Counted from the stretch's first letter, positions 28,970 to 64,000 are shown. The stretch: DNA of 64,000 nucleotides from a virus (IMGVR_UViG_3300023202_000137:1-64000); one strand, 5' to 3'. A program made the numbers and translations. The notes: generated by a model from the sequence alone, not told the origin.

Positions 28970-29311
28970 TTAGCCTCCGTTTTTCACTGCTGCTTGAGTG
29001 AGCAGATTTAGCTCATCGAGCCCCTTGGTCAAGCCGTTGGACTTGGCCACGGTACGCTCGACCATTCGCTTCAGCTCTTTGTGCCCTAGCTCACCTCGCA
29101 ACGCCTTTTGCTTGGCAAGTGCCAAGTTTAGTTGGTCGCTCGATATCTTGCCAAGGTCTAAAAGGGCCTCGCCCATTTTCTTTTCTTGGAGTAGCTGAAG
29201 CGCACTGTCCACATCGACCTGCTTGCAGAGGCCCATTTCAATCAGCACGTTTCCGATGCTCGTTGGGTCTTCCTCGGGTGTCTGTCGATGGCGACGTTTG
29301 CTTTTCAGCAT
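28970..29311 (-). CDS. MshEN-like (PilB/GspE N-terminal) domain protein
   Basis: SIGNVLIEMGL...AL / KMGEALLDLGKISSDQLNLALAKQ tandem motif. Confidence 0.65.
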   Translation of the reverse strand: MLKSKRRHRQTPEEDPTSIGNVLIEMGLCKQVDVDSALQLLQEKKMGEALLDLGKISSDQLNLALAKQKALRGELGHKELKRMVERTVAKSNGLTKGLDELNLLTQAAVKNGG

Positions 29312-56590: not shown

Positions 56591-57532
56591 CTACGCAACC
56601 AGTACGTTCTGAACCTTCACCGCAGCGGTTTCCTCTGCGAGCTTCGTATCGAAGCGTAGAGTTGCCACGATGATCACAACGCCAGCCGACACGTCCTTGT
56701 CGGTCTCCACGCGGATGTTCCGCCAGATACCAACGTTGACGTTCTTCGGATCTGTCAAGATCATCTCGGTGCTGTCGTTGCCGCCGCCCAAGTCTTCCGG
56801 TGCCACGGGCACTGGGACGATTGGAACACCGGAATACATCACCGGGGCATCTTGCTCCAGGAACCGATCGCCAACCACCGTCGCACGCTCAGCGAGCGCG
56901 TCACGGTAATCGATCTCGGAGTCGATGCTGGTCATGAACCGCATCTGACGCTTGTTGCGTAAGAACTCCGAGGGCATGGTCTTCAGCGAGTCACGGAACA
57001 ACGTCTTGTTGGTCCGTGCGCCCGCTGCATCCACCAGGTTACTGGTGGTCAGCGCACGCACGCCGTCGAACTTGGCAAAGAAGGGGTCGGCAGAGCCGGT
57101 GTCCCCGTTCCAGATCATATCGTCCATGTCGAGCGCGACGCGCTCGGCCATCAACTCCATGACCGTTTGGCGGAAGTTGCCCCGCTCGATGCTGTCTTCC
57201 AGCACCTCGTTGGACAACCGTACCTCTGCCTTGAAGAGTTGGGCATCCAACTCAACCAGAGAGAGGTCCGGCTTACTCCGCTCTGCCTGGGTCAGAGCTA
57301 CGGCCTCGTTTCCAGCTCGGAGAATTCGTCCGGCGAACCGGATCTTCTCGATGAGCTGCTTGGGCGACCGCATCGGAACCACGGTGGCCATCTTCATGAG
57401 CACCGCTTCGTCGATGAGAATGCGCATGAAGCGCTGGGCTTGCGCTGGCTGCAGAAGCCCACCGTCGTTGGTGAGATCCGCCAAGGCCATATCGGCCTTT
57501 TCCAGCAGGGTTCGGTTTGCAGTAACAGTCAT
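56591..57532 (-). CDS. Major capsid protein (HK97 fold, XkdG-like)
   Basis: GGLL.P.QA..F, E.LEDSIE, D......NGD, +LT.P.N...G. Confidence 0.9.
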
Positions 57533-57578
57533 TTCTCAAATACTCCTGCGCCTAGGTGACGCGATTTCGGGTTGAATC

Positions 57579-58778
57579 TCAGTAGTCCCGCTGCTTGGCG
57601 TTCATGTCGTGGGGCCAAACTACATCCCCAGTGTCTTTCTTCGTCACGCTCTCCCCGGTGGGGGTTTGCGACGATGGAAGACCAACGCCATTCTTCAAGG
57701 ACTCGATCTCCTCGCGTTGCTTCTCAATGGTTTTGTTCTGCTTGGAGACCTTCTTCTTGAGGTCGCGCATCTCATCCAGACTTTCCTGGAGTTGGTCCGC
57801 AACCTTGGTGAGATCGGCCAACCCCGGAATGTCCCGCATGATACGAGCTGCATCCGAAACCGCGCTGTCATCAGGCTGCTCACCTGACCCAACGTTCGGG
57901 CCCTTGGTATTCGGAGCATCTTGGGGGGCTTTCTTTGCTTCGGATACGACTTCTTTCATCGTACCGAAAAGCTCCTTTAGCTCCTGCATCCACTGACCTC
58001 TGGCCTTGCTTGTGCCTTCCCGATTGTCGCTGTTGCCGTCATCGCTTCGCCCTTCAACGAGCGAAGGATCACCGCCACGACTTTCGAGTACGGCGTCGGC
58101 ATGTCGCTCCAGGTGCCGACGCGCTGCAGCCAACTCATCCTCGGGCAAGTCGGATTTCTCCAACGCCTTGAGAGATCGCTTCAACGCCTCAACGTCCAGA
58201 GTTTCATGCTCGTTCGGGTCACCCACATCGGAACTGTGGTGACGGAAGAAACGCGTGGCTGCATCCTCACCCTTCGCAGTCTTCACAACTGCAAAGGCAG
58301 AGTCGGGAAACTTCTTCTGCGCCTTCGCCTTCTTCTTCTTCTTATTCTTCTTGCCTTTGTCTTTGCTGTAGGTGGTGTCATCGTCGTCGTCATCGTCGTC
58401 GTCCTGTTTGACGATGCCTGACTTGGACACCACACGGATGGCATCCCCTATATCCTTGGCTAGTTCCTCGGGAATTGAAGCACTCGTGTCGTCAATCTGT
58501 GCAGACTTCACAATTTCTTGGATGCCCTGCAGGCGACTCAGGGTTTTGCCGACGGCTTCGAGGATGGACTCGCGTGACTCAGTGCTGAGTGCGAGCGCGC
58601 TCTGGGCACTGAAGCTGCCGTCATCGTTCTCAACGATCTCGGGAGCAACGTTGCCGCGCTTTGTGAGAATGAACTTGCGCTTGTTTGCGGCGCGATCTAC
58701 GAGGCTCACCTCTTCGGTTTCGATGTCTTCGAGTCGATGTAGCCCGTCGCCATCGGACCGTGCTTTTCGAATTGTCAC
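57579..58778 (-). CDS. Capsid scaffold-like protein
   Basis: L.D....EVSLVDRAANKRKF N-terminus, FPDSAFA..R...HH domain, C-terminal coiled coil. Confidence 0.65.
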   Translation of the reverse strand: MTIRKARSDGDGLHRLEDIETEEVSLVDRAANKRKFILTKRGNVAPEIVENDDGSFSAQSALALSTESRESILEAVGKTLSRLQGIQEIVKSAQIDDTSASIPEELAKDIGDAIRVVSKSGIVKQDDDDDDDDDTTYSKDKGKKNKKKKKAKAQKKFPDSAFAVVKTAKGEDAATRFFRHHSSDVGDPNEHETLDVEALKRSLKALEKSDLPEDELAAARRHLERHADAVLESRGGDPSLVEGRSDDGNSDNREGTSKARGQWMQELKELFGTMKEVVSEAKKAPQDAPNTKGPNVGSGEQPDDSAVSDAARIMRDIPGLADLTKVADQLQESLDEMRDLKKKVSKQNKTIEKQREEIESLKNGVGLPSSQTPTGESVTKKDTGDVVWPHDMNAKQRDY

Positions 58779-61700
58779 GCAGCCTCCTTAACAGGTTTTC
58801 GAAGTGCGGACCCTCCGATAGAAAACCCTGTGAGATCACCTCGTTTTATCGCTCGCCAGAGTGCGTCGTCAAGAACGCGAACAGCGAGCAGCCACGTGCC
58901 CTTGCGGACCTTCGTTCCGTTCACGTTCATCTCCACTGGGGCAACGTAGCTTTCCAAGATCTTGACCTTGCTGTTGATCACCCCCTTGTGCATCAGTCCG
59001 ATATTACGGAACTTCTCCATGAATTTGTGGGCGCTCTCTCGAATATCCTCTGCGCTGTAGATGTCCTTCTGGGTGTCGGGATCGAGCGGCGCGCCTTCCG
59101 TACCATCGTTTGGCTCCAGCACCACGCCAAGCACGAAGCGTTCGTCGTCGGTAGACTTCTCGGTCTTCAGCAATGGCAGCTTTTTCTGCAGGACCTCGTC
59201 AAACGCCTTCTGATCCTCTGTCTGTGCATTACCCTTGAACACTGCGCAAAGCTCATTTCCACCGAACGTGTAGCTCGCATCGGCTGCTTTGATGATAGCA
59301 CCGTTCGACTCGGGAGACTCATTTGCCCAGACCAGCGCCTCCTGCAGCTCGATATCCGTACGGACCAATTGCGAGGGGGTCAGGTACACCTGCTCTGACT
59401 TCTGCAACAAATGCTCGACCTTGCGGCGTCGCTCGATATATCGCTTCGCCGTCACATTGCCTGCACTGGGGAGGAACAGTGCGTCATGAATACCTAGGTA
59501 AGTGGTCGCGCGATCACCAGAGGTAATAAATCCGTCGAGCACAAAGTCCCCGCCCAGCTTTCGTACCTCGTTCTCGATGTCGCATCGAAGCTCCTCGCGC
59601 TTCTCGGTCTGTCGCTTCAGGATTCCAATCACACCCTTAACCCCAGCGGTCAGGGTGATGGTTCGGAACGATCCCTCTTTGAACTCTCCGGGCTCTCGCT
59701 GACGGAACCGATAGGAATCCTCGGTTTCATCAACCTTGCCCGAAGTGAACTCATGCTCTTTCAACCAGCGTCGAGCATCGGCTTCGCTCTTGAAACGCTT
59801 TTTGTCCAAGATCAGTGTTTGCAGCGTCGTGCTTTGCTTCATGAAGATGCGCACGCGCTCGGCTCGCTTTTGCACGGAGACTTCCAGCCCATCGAGGCGT
59901 GGTTCCACGAGCATCCCACCTTGCAACGTGGTCGATGTCGCAACCTTCTGCAGAAGCTCCTCGCCGCTTGCGTACTCTGAACCCATCATGGGTTCGTAGA
60001 GTGCGAACGGTCGTAGCTGACGACGGTCCAGAGAGGGATCTGTCGAATTCGCCCAGACCTGGAGCCCCTGACGTACCGGGACTTGCTTGATCACGGAGTA
60101 AGATTCGACGGGCTCCAACTCGGCTTTCGCCAATTCGTACTCTGCGAAGCGTTTGGACAACTCCCCTCTGTTCTGGACTTCGTTGATGTGGCCGGGGGCA
60201 AAGCTCGCAGCACAGTCGTTGCACTCGACAACAGACAAAGAGCGACCGCCGTCCATGTGGCTTTTGCCGGTCTTGCGAACATTGAGGCTACCGCAAGGCG
60301 GGCATTCTACATGGCTGAGGTCTTCCCCGCGACGCAAGAAAACCTGCGCCGACGCTCCGCGACTCGACTTGCTAATCTCCTGGGACTCCTCTGCGACGAG
60401 AACCCAATGCCTTGATCCCGGCTCCTCTGCCTTGAGCGTGTAGATGCCTCGCATCTTTCCACGGAACCGCAGTCGGATCTCATCCTCACTTTTGCTCAAG
60501 AACTCCACAAACCCAGAGTCCACGTTTCGTACCCAGCTCTCCATGCTCTTGGTAGCATTGAGAATCTCGCCACCGATTTGCTCGGCAGGCTTTGCCTGAC
60601 CCTCGAACTTCATGAGCTTTGTGCTCTTGAGCGTGCGGCAATCCCCTGCGATGCGCTCGTGCCCCTGCAAGGGGTCGCGGTCTAGCGCCCAGGCTTGCTT
60701 TCCAATCACAAGATGCCACCGCTCTCGCGTGGGGCTGTCACCCTCTGCCGATTTCCATTGCTGCCAAGCAATTCCGTAGGGCTTCGATGTCTCTTTGTCC
60801 TTCTGTGTTCCTGTGTCGAGGTATATTTTATGTAGGACCCGCTGGAAGTCCCCGTTAACGACTTTCACGTTCGAGTCAGTGAAATGTCCACGCTTCACCA
60901 ACTCGTCGCGCATTGCGCGAGCTTCCTCCCCACGAGCCTCCCAGTATCGCAAGGAACTTGGCACGAGTCGTTCGAGCGAAACAGGAATTCCAGAGTACCC
61001 GTCAGGCGGCATGACTCTGGCCTTTGCTGCACGCTCGGTGAGCACGAGTGGGCGAAGGTCCGTCTGCCATTGGGACCACCACCGGGGTTTCTCGGTTTTT
61101 TGCAGCGAGAACAGCAACCGCCCCTGGAACTCTGGGTCGCCCGTAAAAAAATACTCGTGAGCCGATGGTGTCTGCAGGCCGTACTCGACCTTTAGGTCTG
61201 GATCGGTCACCCGAGATAGTACTGCGGGCTCCTCTGCAGTTGCCCCAACCTCACCTGGCTGGACCTTCTCGTGATCGAGATTTAGCCAGGCCATGGGGCT
61301 CTGCCCCTTCGGGGTAGCAGCAACCCCCTCATTCCAATCACGCTCAAAGTAAGAGCCGCTCTTTTGAAATCGTCGAGCAAATCGCCTGGCCTCCCTTACG
61401 TCTTTGACTGTCGGAACCCGACCGGGCTGGTGGTTGTCAATGGTCCACCCCACCGTCACGTCGTCGAGCTGCAACCGGAGGTCGCCGTGCATCCCCTTGC
61501 CTATAAAATGGTACTGATAGACGGCCTGGCGCTTCCCCCTAGACTTCGGAACCAAGCACAGCGCCTCGGCCTTAGTCACAGTGTCGATGCACTGCTGACC
61601 GTGAACCTCAGCGTCACTGGCCTGGAGGATTCGAAACTCTCCATCCCCGGGCCGTACCTCGTGAGACTTGGGCACCAGCCATAGGTCGTACAGGCCCACC

Positions 61701-64000
61701 CTATTTTCAGGACCCCCGATGTCTCCACCCTCCGCTGCGGCGGTTCGACCAAACATTCCCTCGGGAACAAGGGATTCTATGTGAGGGGAAAGACTGGGCC
61801 CGCTCAATAGAAGGTCGATGTCACCTTTGGTGACTCCCCAGTTCGCGAGACCGCCGACAACTGACACCGCATCACGCTCCAGAAGCACGGGTCGTAGCTG
61901 GGTCGTCACTTGATCTAGCTGAATTTCTCCGCTGTGCTCTCGGGAATTCTTTGAGTGATGCGAGCGGCCAAACTCATCCGACGCCAGTCGCATCACTTCA
62001 GACAATGCACCCAGACCGTTGGTAACTCCCTTGCCAAGCGACTTGATAGCGTCCTGTGGAAGTTTCGACAGATGTCCGTGGAGATCTTTGACCACCTGCA
62101 GAAGATTGTGTTCCCCACACTTCGTCAGCTTTCCGGTGTTAACCGCCGAGAGATCTTTCTTCAAAGCCTCCGCGCGTCTGGGGAACGAATCAAGAAACGA
62201 CACGATTGGTTGCTTGCCCTGCATGCCCGACAGCAAAGAGACGCTGCGCTTGCAGAAGCTCGGCGCGAGTACAGCGAGCTGATGTGCTAGCGACTGTGCA
62301 GACTTCAGCGATTCAACTTCATCGTCGTTCAGCTCTATGGCTTCGGGCTCTGGGTCTTTGAACTTCTCTACTTTTGAAACGCGGTACCCCCAAAGAACTT
62401 TGGATTTCGGCCACCGCTTCTCGCGCTCCTCATCAGTCAACCCATGCTCGGTCACCGTCTCGGCAAACTTCCATGTCGAGATCTTCTCTGCGGCCTCAAC
62501 TTCGATGATTCCGTAGTCGGTGCTTCCGTCGGTAACCAGCACCGGGCCTTCGATGCTGTGCTTCTTTGCTTCGAGAAACATCGACACATCACCGTCGATG
62601 ATCTTACGAGCGTGGTCCGGTGTCGTCTCGAATTCCAGAGCTGCTCGTCGTCGCCTTTCATCGCTTTCACGCAACGAGTGTCTTGCCTCTGCACCAGCGT
62701 CGATGAACAAATCGCTGGTGCCGAACCAATTGATCGGACCGTCCACCACCTGGCACTCGCCAACCGACCCGGTCTCCGCTCGAAGATAGAACCGGCAATT
62801 GCCGCACACCCGCTCCCGGTCGGCAGACTGCCCTAGCTCTGGGACATAATCGGCCTCGTCTTGATTGAATTTCCTACCGTTTTCCTCCACCCGCCTGATC
62901 GTCTCGTCGGCCTCCCAGCCACGGCTATTTTGGGGGGCTTGCTTGGTCGCGCGATCTCGATCTTCCTCGATGGCCTTTCGGATGTGCTCGGTTTCGGGCC
63001 CGACGTACACAAGCAACGGACTCGTGTAGCTCTTGGCTAGCTCAACGACCTCGCGATCCATGGTATCGAACATCTCGTCGTAGCCAAGCATCGCCTTTTG
63101 CATGGGGAGTATCTCCCCCTTCTCTAGCGACTTATTTATATGGCTGTTGAGTTTCTGGAAAAACCGTTTGTAGGTTCGGATCGAAAAACGCAGTCGGTCT
63201 TCCCGCTTCAGGAAGTCAAATCCCTTGGCTTGCGCAGAGTCTCGAATTTCCTTTGGAACTTTGTCTTTCGCGAAACCTGATACACCTGGCCAACCGTTCT
63301 TTCGAGTCGTGAGCACTTCGACGCGACCGTAGGCAGGGCCAAAGGCCCACGAGGTAAAATCAAACGAGTCAACGTGCTTCCAGAACTCTGCGTACCGCCA
63401 ACTTCGGCGACCAACACCCAATAGATGCAAGTAGGTGTGGTTGTGTGTCTTGCAGAGATCTGTACGCTTTCGACATACCTCGATAAGCTGGGTGTTCGTT
63501 GCGCTCCGATAGCTTCCCTTGCCTTTTCCCCCTTCAGAGCTTCCCCCTTTGCCGTCCTTCTTTTCTTCTTTGTCTTTGCGCGACAGCCAAAACGAATTGA
63601 CCATGCCACCCCAGGCAACTTTCTTCCCGGTGCGGTAGTATTGCTTCGCGCGGTCCGTGATCTTTGTTGGGATGTGGTCAACATATATGGGGGCAACACC
63701 CAACTTCACTAGGGCTTCAAAGTTTTCGTCGGTCTTCTTTGGGCTCGACGGAACGTCGATGGGCATGAACTCTTCAACAAGTGACTTGTGAGACTTCACA
63801 AAGTCGGCGTACTCTTCGATTGATACCTTTCCCCCATGCACTGCTGCAGAAAACGCACCCGAGTCCAGCAACACACGCACGCCGTTTAGCTCCTTGGGTA
63901 ACCCTTTCTTGAAGTAGTGGTAGGAAACGAGCATCTCTCGGATGCCCTCTTCCTTGAGTATCTGGATCTGATCTTTGGCTACGGCGACGAAATACGAGTG
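58775..64000 (-). CDS. Giant multidomain protein: TGT-like, HiPIP-like, ASCH-like, NTase, 2x LigD-PE-like, Zn ribbon, degenerate ATP-ligase, XkdF prohead protease (5' partial)
   Basis: Frame open from 64000 (HSYFVAV...MLVSY). DSGAFS/HLLG/DFTSW; QYH....HGDLR; EPRLDG; C-terminal VLEP, D.Q.D, AH.FM, MH, ESY, GTW, TGFSIGG. Confidence 0.85.
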   Translation of the reverse strand, partial: HSYFVAVAKDQIQILKEEGIREMLVSYHYFKKGLPKELNGVRVLLDSGAFSAAVHGGKVSIEEYADFVKSHKSLVEEFMPIDVPSSPKKTDENFEALVKLGVAPIYVDHIPTKITDRAKQYYRTGKKVAWGGMVNSFWLSRKDKEEKKDGKGGSSEGGKGKGSYRSATNTQLIEVCRKRTDLCKTHNHTYLHLLGVGRRSWRYAEFWKHVDSFDFTSWAFGPAYGRVEVLTTRKNGWPGVSGFAKDKVPKEIRDSAQAKGFDFLKREDRLRFSIRTYKRFFQKLNSHINKSLEKGEILPMQKAMLGYDEMFDTMDREVVELAKSYTSPLLVYVGPETEHIRKAIEEDRDRATKQAPQNSRGWEADETIRRVEENGRKFNQDEADYVPELGQSADRERVCGNCRFYLRAETGSVGECQVVDGPINWFGTSDLFIDAGAEARHSLRESDERRRRAALEFETTPDHARKIIDGDVSMFLEAKKHSIEGPVLVTDGSTDYGIIEVEAAEKISTWKFAETVTEHGLTDEEREKRWPKSKVLWGYRVSKVEKFKDPEPEAIELNDDEVESLKSAQSLAHQLAVLAPSFCKRSVSLLSGMQGKQPIVSFLDSFPRRAEALKKDLSAVNTGKLTKCGEHNLLQVVKDLHGHLSKLPQDAIKSLGKGVTNGLGALSEVMRLASDEFGRSHHSKNSREHSGEIQLDQVTTQLRPVLLERDAVSVVGGLANWGVTKGDIDLLLSGPSLSPHIESLVPEGMFGRTAAAEGGDIGGPENRVGLYDLWLVPKSHEVRPGDGEFRILQASDAEVHGQQCIDTVTKAEALCLVPKSRGKRQAVYQYHFIGKGMHGDLRLQLDDVTVGWTIDNHQPGRVPTVKDVREARRFARRFQKSGSYFERDWNEGVAATPKGQSPMAWLNLDHEKVQPGEVGATAEEPAVLSRVTDPDLKVEYGLQTPSAHEYFFTGDPEFQGRLLFSLQKTEKPRWWSQWQTDLRPLVLTERAAKARVMPPDGYSGIPVSLERLVPSSLRYWEARGEEARAMRDELVKRGHFTDSNVKVVNGDFQRVLHKIYLDTGTQKDKETSKPYGIAWQQWKSAEGDSPTRERWHLVIGKQAWALDRDPLQGHERIAGDCRTLKSTKLMKFEGQAKPAEQIGGEILNATKSMESWVRNVDSGFVEFLSKSEDEIRLRFRGKMRGIYTLKAEEPGSRHWVLVAEESQEISKSSRGASAQVFLRRGEDLSHVECPPCGSLNVRKTGKSHMDGGRSLSVVECNDCAASFAPGHINEVQNRGELSKRFAEYELAKAELEPVESYSVIKQVPVRQGLQVWANSTDPSLDRRQLRPFALYEPMMGSEYASGEELLQKVATSTTLQGGMLVEPRLDGLEVSVQKRAERVRIFMKQSTTLQTLILDKKRFKSEADARRWLKEHEFTSGKVDETEDSYRFRQREPGEFKEGSFRTITLTAGVKGVIGILKRQTEKREELRCDIENEVRKLGGDFVLDGFITSGDRATTYLGIHDALFLPSAGNVTAKRYIERRRKVEHLLQKSEQVYLTPSQLVRTDIELQEALVWANESPESNGAIIKAADASYTFGGNELCAVFKGNAQTEDQKAFDEVLQKKLPLLKTEKSTDDERFVLGVVLEPNDGTEGAPLDPDTQKDIYSAEDIRESAHKFMEKFRNIGLMHKGVINSKVKILESYVAPVEMNVNGTKVRKGTWLLAVRVLDDALWRAIKRGDLTGFSIGGSALRKPVKEAA

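Follow-up and report, generated by a model that had tools for sequence, protein, structure and literature searches.

Among the systems closest to the one described here, phage T4 has a P1 site of the form L/I-x-E. For other head-maturation systems, it has been reported that the capsid protein of HK97 is cut at K103/S104 (PMC10275583), that the capsid protein (CP) of phage phi12 is cut after Arg128 and Ccm of SaPIbov5 after Lys87 (PMC8569155), and that gp245 of SPN3US follows a P3-x-P1 code of A-x-Glu with Ser preferred at P1', which occurs in multiple copies in propeptides and with the portal among the substrates (PMC10052503). The substrates of the phiKZ/SPN3US type comprise scaffold or core proteins, the portal and packaged enzymes, and their propeptides are cut at several sites (PMC10052503). 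Here, we describe a locus in a 64,000-nucleotide stretch of viral DNA (IMGVR_UViG_3300023202_000137, positions 1-64000; hereafter the window), of which the last three genes encode a polyprotein of enzyme-like cargo domains ending in an XkdF protease domain, a probable scaffolding protein and an XkdG-type major capsid protein (MCP). These genes are co-directional, all on the minus strand, and as judged from their sequences most likely constitute a unit for head maturation in an uncultured phage (about 91 kb). We propose for this unit a prohead-protease code with Lys at P1, in a family for which no published specificity was found and with cargo fused to the protease, which is plausible and partly supported. 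The precedents of HK97, phi12/SaPIbov5 and SPN3US indicate that such a code would be of a familiar type.

The XkdF domain makes up the C-terminal 130 residues of the polyprotein, and its candidate catalytic His and Ser, together with a DxQxD motif, were invariant across 13-14 diverse sequences in two alignments. A scan of the record for maturation proteases detected XkdF as the sole family, S78 (PF04586) and ClpP being absent. It is encoded directly upstream of the scaffold and the XkdG-type MCP, and the same order is found in Rhodobacter phage RcZahn and Bacillus phage 0105phi7-2. Our literature search found no biochemical characterization or substrate specificity of any XkdF protease, and PDB sequence and profile searches with XkdF found no solved structure. 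Comparison of the XkdF profile with HK97 gp4 by hhalign gave a weak match (E 0.098, probability 0.6%) restricted to 23 columns around the catalytic Ser, in which the Ser of GFSIGG is set onto Ser114 of gp4. The unit resembles HK97 gp4/gp5 in that the predicted cut follows Lys and precedes a small P1' residue, in that the scaffolding segment is rich in h-x-K-[SAQ] (h, hydrophobic), as exemplified by IQKA, AQKA, VSKQ, LTKS and LIKS in the 103-residue delta domain of HK97 translated here, which is digested in that phage, and in that the candidate catalytic His precedes the Ser in a G-x-S-x-G-like turn. It is unlike HK97 in that XkdF is a separate Pfam family (S78_2), whose homology to gp4 is not established at that E value, in that the scaffold is a separate protein and not a domain of the MCP, with an MCP leader of 12 residues and not 103, and in that the protease carries some 1,600 residues of fused enzymes.

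The initial annotation had listed tetrapeptides of the type hydrophobic-x-Lys-(Ser/Ala/Gln), and every one of them was found in the polyprotein, the scaffold and the MCP. Polyprotein residues are numbered throughout from the ATG within the window (adding 39 gives full-length numbering), and the listed copies start there at INKS 266, MQKA 278, LAKS 299, IRKA 318, ATKQ 329, SLKS 542, AIKS 629, VTKA 786, ISKS 1187, LAKA 1268, VIKQ 1281, FMKQ 1364 and TEKS 1591, and in the scaffold at IRKA 3, IVKS 89, VSKS 117, IVKQ 122, LEKS 206 and TSKA 256. LEKA of the MCP, which had been placed at residues 9-12, is present at residues 10-13. With the motif defined as [ILVMAT]xK[SAQ] and the expectation taken from composition-preserving shuffles, the polyprotein contained 22 copies against 7.5 expected (z 5.6) and the scaffold nine against 3.2 (z 3.2), and the MCP as a whole was not enriched (2 vs 1.2). 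The reversed motif [SAQ]Kx[h] was at chance level (7 in the polyprotein and 2 in the scaffold), and so were hxR[SAQ], hxE[SAQ] (0.91x) and hxD[SAQ]; furthermore, a charged P3 residue before K[SAQ] was depleted. These controls indicate that the enrichment is more than an effect of Lys content. A repeated word at the DNA level was ruled out as the source of the motif, because the sites use 12 different hexanucleotides and both Ser codon families, indicating that the signal resides at the protein level.

Among the 114 open reading frames (ORFs) of the record, the polyprotein and the scaffold ranked first and second in motif enrichment, and four of the seven next-ranked ORFs were upstream head-module genes, that is, those of a 457-aa protein whose sole match is a PHROG family of unknown function (5 copies vs 1.2), a 277-aa protein (5 vs 1.8), the portal (5 vs 2.4) and a molybdoenzyme. 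The enrichment in head over tail and replication proteins, previously judged by eye, was thus borne out by counting: the density per 100 aa was 1.44 on the head side and 0.40 on the tail/replication side, and 17.5% of head-side Lys residues lay in a motif compared with 9.6% (Fisher p 0.007).

To extend the comparison to related phages, we took 79 IMG/VR loci with scaffold and MCP genes. The motif was in excess in 38 non-redundant polyproteins (367 observed/203 expected, 1.8x), in 28 scaffolds (177/86, 2.05x) and in 59 head-side ORFs upstream (139/98, 1.42x), and was not in excess in 44 ORFs downstream of the MCP (26/32.5, 0.80x). In a scan of all gapped residue pairs in the 28 scaffolds, V-x-K came first (153 vs 65, z 10.9) and I-x-K was in the top four. 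It could be supposed that the motif has no proteolytic meaning and reflects the local structure of Lys-rich, helix- or beta-rich head proteins together with inherited Lys residues, K-A-D of the MCP being an element of the N-arm. The higher Lys content (8.2% vs 4.2%) indeed explains part of the per-residue excess, unrelated control ORFs showed a mild excess of 1.28x, several conserved sites lie in catalytic or structural motifs, and the sites are not concentrated in disordered segments. We nevertheless find this explanation improbable, given that the reversed motif, equal to it in composition and periodicity, stayed at chance (7 vs 22 and 2 vs 9), as did the Arg, Glu and Asp versions, that tail-side ORFs of the same loci fell below expectation, that the MCP leader of a relative was undetected in virions, as described below, and that HK97 cuts the same type of site. 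Cleavage of the sites by another enzyme, either a trypsin-like or Lys-specific protease of the host or a phage protease encoded on the unsequenced part of about 13% of the genome, seems very improbable; the record is 87% complete by CheckV, and a host protease processes capsid and scaffold proteins in staphylococcal phage 80alpha (cited in PMC8569155), whereas the motif accompanies XkdF/XkdG modules across hosts as different as Bacillus, Rhodobacter, Vibrio, Streptomyces and archaea, which fits a phage-encoded enzyme, and XkdF stands in the usual place of a maturation protease. We lean toward the reading that a hydrophobic residue (or Thr/Ala)-x-Lys followed by Ala, Ser, Gln or Thr is the signal that XkdF recognizes and cleaves, with Lys as the P1 residue.

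The N-terminus of the MCP provides a strikingly conserved candidate site. The MCP (PF05065; phrog_1623, E 1e-93) is of the XkdG-type HK97 fold and shares about 40% identity with its counterparts in RcZahn, 0105phi7-2 and Stenotrophomonas phage DLP5; PDB searches with it gave nothing usable, the profile matching only the RcGTA capsid protein, and that marginally (E 0.13). In alignments reaching down to 23% identity, only 11-13 columns are invariant, and K12 and A13 are among them. In 60 distinct MCPs from related loci, a leader of variable length is followed by N-R-x-h-h-x-K-A-D. XkdG-type capsid proteins are very common, with 2,591 clusters at 50% identity matching the profile of this MCP. Of 151 sequences, composed of this MCP and 150 cluster representatives, 145 had Lys and 4 had Arg at position 12, 133 had Ala at position 13, and 130 had I, L or V at position 10, so that the leader mostly consists of 8-12 variable residues followed by [ILV]-x-K-A-D. 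The conserved K/A lies 12 residues before GGLLQP and K103/S104 of HK97 lies 10 before GSLIQP, with the MCP profile comparison leaving the N-arms unaligned. In 0105phi7-2, where gp5 combines XkdF and scaffold, the MCP (gp6) reads MTLNNKTIIEK11-A12DVTL. Mass spectrometry of its virions detected peptide 12-38 abundantly and yielded zero spectra for gp6 residues 1-10, which led the authors to conclude that particles lack the first 10 residues (PMC10219371). This result is what cleavage at the conserved K/A predicts and is suggestive, not decisive. A defined code would also account for the invariant N-terminal K-A-D of XkdG-type capsid proteins. We regard trimming of the MCP at K12/A13 as quite likely.

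The scaffold occupies the same position, between protease and MCP, as the presumed scaffold ORFs of related loci, to which it is 19-28% identical. Its N-terminal motif was found in all 16 aligned scaffolds, in which L16, V24, V27, D28, A31, N32 and K40 were invariant. In single-chain protease-scaffold proteins, this element (RL.DI..EEVSLVDRAANKRKFILTK) stands ahead of XkdF, and 0105phi7-2 gp5 has both parts in one chain; similarly, positions 4-34 of phrog_3017 match the scaffold and positions 36-158 match XkdF of the polyprotein. The unit is thus like the single-chain XkdF protease-scaffolds (the PBSX XkdF type, phrog_3017 and 0105phi7-2 gp5) in its XkdF domain, partner MCP family, N-terminal VSLVD..AN...F...K motif and scaffold part rich in h-x-K-[SAQ], and unlike them in being split, with XkdF ending the polyprotein and the N-terminal motif and scaffold forming the next gene. 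This sharing of the N-terminal motif suggests that an ancestral protease-scaffold gene was split, its protease half having come to lie at the end of a cargo polyprotein, and the motif may possibly serve as a tether to the protease. The GTG start of the scaffold overlaps the stop of the polyprotein (GTGA) and follows an AAGGAGG Shine-Dalgarno sequence (AAGGAGG-N-GTG), and the distance between the two genes varies among relatives, from a 4-nt overlap to 171 nt. Fusion of polyprotein and scaffold through a programmed frameshift was ruled out by this start of the scaffold's own and by the variable spacing. As separate observations on this protein, residues 126-160 (58299-58403) contain nine Asp in a row and, within 10 residues after them, a Lys-rich run (KDKGKKNKKKKKAKAQKK), and the C-terminus (57579-57620) carries a V(S)WP.DMN motif that is conserved in most scaffolds of the family and is a candidate capsid-binding end.

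For the polyprotein, conservation at module borders could be assessed in a family of at least 27 large XkdF-terminated proteins of 985-2031 aa, in which the cargo varies between relatives (combinations of Dam methylase, ligase, 2H phosphoesterase, uracil-DNA glycosylase (UDG), NUDIX, S-adenosylmethionine (SAM) decarboxylase and TGT-like domains); relatives of the polyprotein in IMG/VR number at least 247. We compared the occurrence of K[SAQ] in the 22 residues upstream of a module start with that in random windows, using non-redundant family members. K[SAQ] was present upstream of the second phosphoesterase-like domain (PE2) in 26 of 34 members (random 9.4 +/- 2.6), upstream of the ligase in 13 of 18 (5.2 +/- 1.8) and upstream of XkdF in 29 of 46 (13.3 +/- 3.2), with h-x-K in 46 of 46 at the latter border, where the Lys preceding XkdF (K22 of the XkdF alignments) was invariant or nearly so. 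The border Lys is at a fixed position with flanks that are otherwise unconserved and often acidic. In the linker downstream of PE2, K-[S/A/Q/G] was seen by eye in each of the six closest homologues, with nothing else alignable, and the Lys aligned with K788 before the first phosphoesterase-like domain (PE1) is kept as h-x-K-[QA]-DDP across the family. Linkers defined by BLAST coverage, 40 only and hence under-powered, contained hxK[SAQ] 9 times against 4.4 expected (z 2.2). In the polyprotein itself, five sites (INK/S, MQK/A, LAK/S, IRK/A and ATK/Q) fall within the 66 residues of the spacer after the TGT-like domain.

Several findings weigh against cleavage of this kind. Cleavage products have been observed neither for this phage nor for the polyproteins of its relatives. 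The motif was defined on inspection of these same sequences, its enrichment per Lys is just 1.8x (p 0.007), and conserved sites shared among homologues make the counts non-independent, a few of these sites inflating the family totals. The 0105phi7-2 data were obtained with trypsin, which also cuts after Lys, and the missing tryptic peptides are of 5 residues only, so that the exact N-terminal boundary is ambiguous; peptides as short as 5 residues are often missed. Whereas many sites had been placed near domain borders, this held for a part of them: in two AlphaFold models, 10 of the 22 polyprotein sites lie in 10-residue blocks with a mean predicted local distance difference test score (pLDDT) below 60 (low-confidence sites include five between residues 266 and 332, VPKS 756, VTKA 788, ISKS 1189 and TEKS 1593), and the other 12 lie within confidently folded domains. 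Mapping to linkers gave no preference, the mean pLDDT of motif Lys being 66.9 and that of other Lys 67.4 (Mann-Whitney p 0.93). K1129 (LNxTK) and K1549 (ligase GAxxK) are conserved, probably for structural or catalytic reasons. The h-x-K-Q-DDP before PE1 is also present in two members without XkdF (P0026 and P0028), and thus this site may belong to the phosphoesterase fold; likewise, the conserved Lys before XkdF also occurs in stand-alone XkdF proteases and may be a component of that fold. At several of the conserved junction Lys residues the P1' position is relaxed, R, T, Y and G being found there as well. The N-terminal border of Dam has a conserved h-E-K with R, T or Y often at P1' and K[SAQ] in 4 of 8 internal cases, which weakens the P1' part of the rule. 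In addition, the polyprotein's own linker between PE1 and PE2 has no canonical site and contains only TQK/D, DK/E and SK/P.

Taking the sites in folds, the lack of linker bias and the plain PE1-PE2 linker at face value, XkdF might cut only the MCP leader, the scaffold and its own N-terminal linker, with the remaining polyprotein staying whole, either packaged or outside the head, and with most motif copies in the cargo being incidental or weakly selected. The polyprotein would then be intact like the virion RNA polymerase (vRNAP) of phage N4, which is packaged unprocessed despite a peptidase domain (Iyer et al, 2017, PMC5512222), and the conservation, which is strongest at the MCP site and in the scaffolds, would be explained. 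We consider this restricted use of the code rather unlikely, since the polyprotein sites are at three times the expectation, with five clustered in a low-confidence spacer, and since most relatives retain Lys-(Q/A/S) before PE2 and the ligase, each time at a fixed position within a variable linker.

The claim of the initial annotation that XkdF cuts after Lys gained strength from the Lys- and direction-specific enrichment in head proteins, K-A-D of the MCP and Lys-(Q/A/S) of the linkers; from this enrichment, specificity and conservation we infer cleavage itself, the sites used and the fate of the cargo in the following order. Assembly of the procapsid would incorporate, along with the scaffold, the polyprotein or its protease end at the minimum; at least the C-terminal end would have to reach the procapsid, XkdF being the sole candidate maturation protease. 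The protease would then take off the 12-residue MCP leader at LEK/A, and the scaffold would be cut at its nine sites into pieces of up to 86 residues, a degradation that we regard as fairly probable. The polyprotein would be cut at exposed sites, namely in the spacer after the TGT-like domain and in the linkers before PE1, after PE2, before the ligase-like fold and before XkdF, and copies buried in folded domains would probably remain uncut. Release of every cargo domain, as the initial annotation had it, is unsupported by the distribution of sites given above, and the release of at least some cargo modules has an even chance. As a broader version that we advance tentatively and consider somewhat doubtful, the h-x-Lys/small-residue code could be family-wide, with XkdF carrying up to about 1,900 fused residues of DNA-modification and repair enzymes into the procapsid and cutting the linkers, and with the separated enzymes being co-injected along with the DNA. 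If this were true, polyprotein processing of the RNA-virus type would take place within a tailed-phage head, in a clade of at least 247 IMG/VR loci.

The proposed system is like those of T4 gp21 and phiKZ/SPN3US gp175/gp245 in its three-position code (P3-x-P1) repeated many times, and differs from them in the predicted P1 residue, which is Lys here and Glu there, and in the arrangement of the cargo, which is fused in cis to the protease here and is made there as separate products with N-terminal targeting propeptides. A targeting propeptide of the T4 type with L/I-x-Glu was not found, hxE[SAQ] showing no excess and the cargo having no propeptide of its own. The polyprotein is also like the polyvalent proteins (PMC5512222) in being very large, with variable strings of nucleic acid-modifying and repair domains, in its head-gene context and in containing a peptidase. 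The peptidase proposed to process those proteins is a zincin metallopeptidase (Iyer et al, 2017, PMC5512222), whereas the one here is a head-maturation protease, and XkdF is mentioned 0 times in that paper. Packaging of the polyprotein in the virion would follow from its fusion to the sole maturation protease. A defined P3-x-Lys/P1' code would let the ends of mature capsid, scaffold and portal proteins be predicted from sequence, and would give direct access to the protease-fused cargo polyproteins, a large and unstudied class, which may bring anti-restriction or DNA-repair enzymes into the host.

Table 1. Features of the head-maturation unit and their positions in the window. A slash between residues marks a predicted scissile bond; AF2, AlphaFold 2.
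Feature	Position	Strand	Basis
Cargo-protease polyprotein	58775..64000	minus	ORF list and translation; in-window ATG at 63934 gives 1719 aa
TGT/DpdA-like domain, residues 1 to ~262	63149..64000	minus	phrog_887 queuine tRNA-ribosyltransferase, E 3e-20; AF2 model of residues 1-795
Low-confidence spacer after TGT-like domain	62939..63139	minus	block pLDDT 32-54
Low-confidence linker before PE1, with VPK/S (756), VTK/A (788), VPK/S (797)	61541..61675	minus	pLDDT <50 at residues 749-795
Two LigD 3'-phosphoesterase-like beta domains, PE1 ~800-1034 and PE2 ~1049-1183	60386..61537	minus	Foldseek, AF2
Disordered linker from PE2 to zinc ribbon, with ISK/S (K1189)	60365..60385	minus	pLDDT <50 at residues 1184-1190
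Zinc ribbon/ligase-like border, with LAK/A (K1270), VIK/Q (K1283)	60083..60133	minus	K[SAQ] conserved upstream of ligase
ATP-dependent-ligase-like fold, residues 1279-1571	59222..60100	minus	Foldseek to DNA ligases, E 1e-8; weak PF01068
Disordered linker before XkdF, with LLK/T (K1590, nearly invariant), TEK/S (K1593)	59144..59221	minus	pLDDT <50 at 1572-1597
XkdF / Peptidase_S78_2 domain	58805..59164	minus	PF14550, E 2e-25, 89.5 bits vs cut-off 24; 94.5 bits in genome scan
Candidate catalytic residues His1649 and Ser1705 in GFSIGG (residues 1703-1708)	58988-58990 (His); 58811-58828 (GFSIGG)	minus	alignment invariance
Probable scaffolding protein, 399 aa, nine motif sites	57579..58778	minus	translation; position between protease and MCP
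Scaffold N-terminal motif RL.DI..EEVSLVDRAANKRKFILTK, ~27 aa, residues 15-41	58656..58736	minus	present in all 16 aligned scaffolds
XkdG-type HK97-fold MCP, 313 aa	56591..57532	minus	PF05065, phrog_1623
MCP 12-residue leader and predicted maturation site K12/A13	57494..57532	minus	K12 and A13 invariant in two alignments

The remaining domains of the polyprotein were assigned as listed in Table 1. Between the TGT-like and phosphoesterase-like parts, there are an alpha/beta domain without assignment, a helical bundle and a small alpha/beta domain. The phosphoesterase-like region, for which the AF2 model was confident, matched 3p43, an archaeal LigD phosphoesterase, by Foldseek, and residues 809-1179 matched by tblastn an ANMV-1 gene annotated "ATP-dependent DNA ligase"; for PE1, searching the PDB by sequence and by profile gave nothing usable. 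In the ligase-like fold, the motif I Lys that is adenylated is replaced by Arg (EPRLDG), and the closest relatives (P0004, P0005 and P0009) are likewise without this Lys. It was also observed that the ligase-like fold is split by an insert of about 70 aa (STTLQTLILDKKRFKSEADARRWLKEHEF...), the same module being free-standing just before XkdF in a relative (P0018), and that the TGT/DpdA-like domain contains a low-complexity insert rich in K, G and S (KDKEEKKDGKGGSSEGGKGKGS) at residues 111-144 (window 63503-63604, minus strand), which is predicted to be disordered.

The source record has 90,757 bp, and the ORF of the polyprotein exceeds the window. An upstream ATG at genome position 64051 adds 39 residues (YFVAVAKDQIQILKEEG...), and because these align with the N-termini of TGT-like relatives (P0015 and P0023), to which they are homologous, the real polyprotein probably has 1758 aa, starting at 64051 and overlapping the upstream molybdoenzyme gene by 41 nt.

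Elsewhere in the window, a Lys-rich (11.5%) ORF of 113 aa at 28970-29311 on the minus strand contains 4 motif copies against about 1 expected (p ~0.01), an excess that is not significant after correction for about 114 ORFs. Just beyond the window, the interval between the portal and the polyprotein (L082, genome 64011-71245) encodes a molybdopterin oxidoreductase domain, a FolE2-type GTP cyclohydrolase, a SLOG-family protein and three unknowns.

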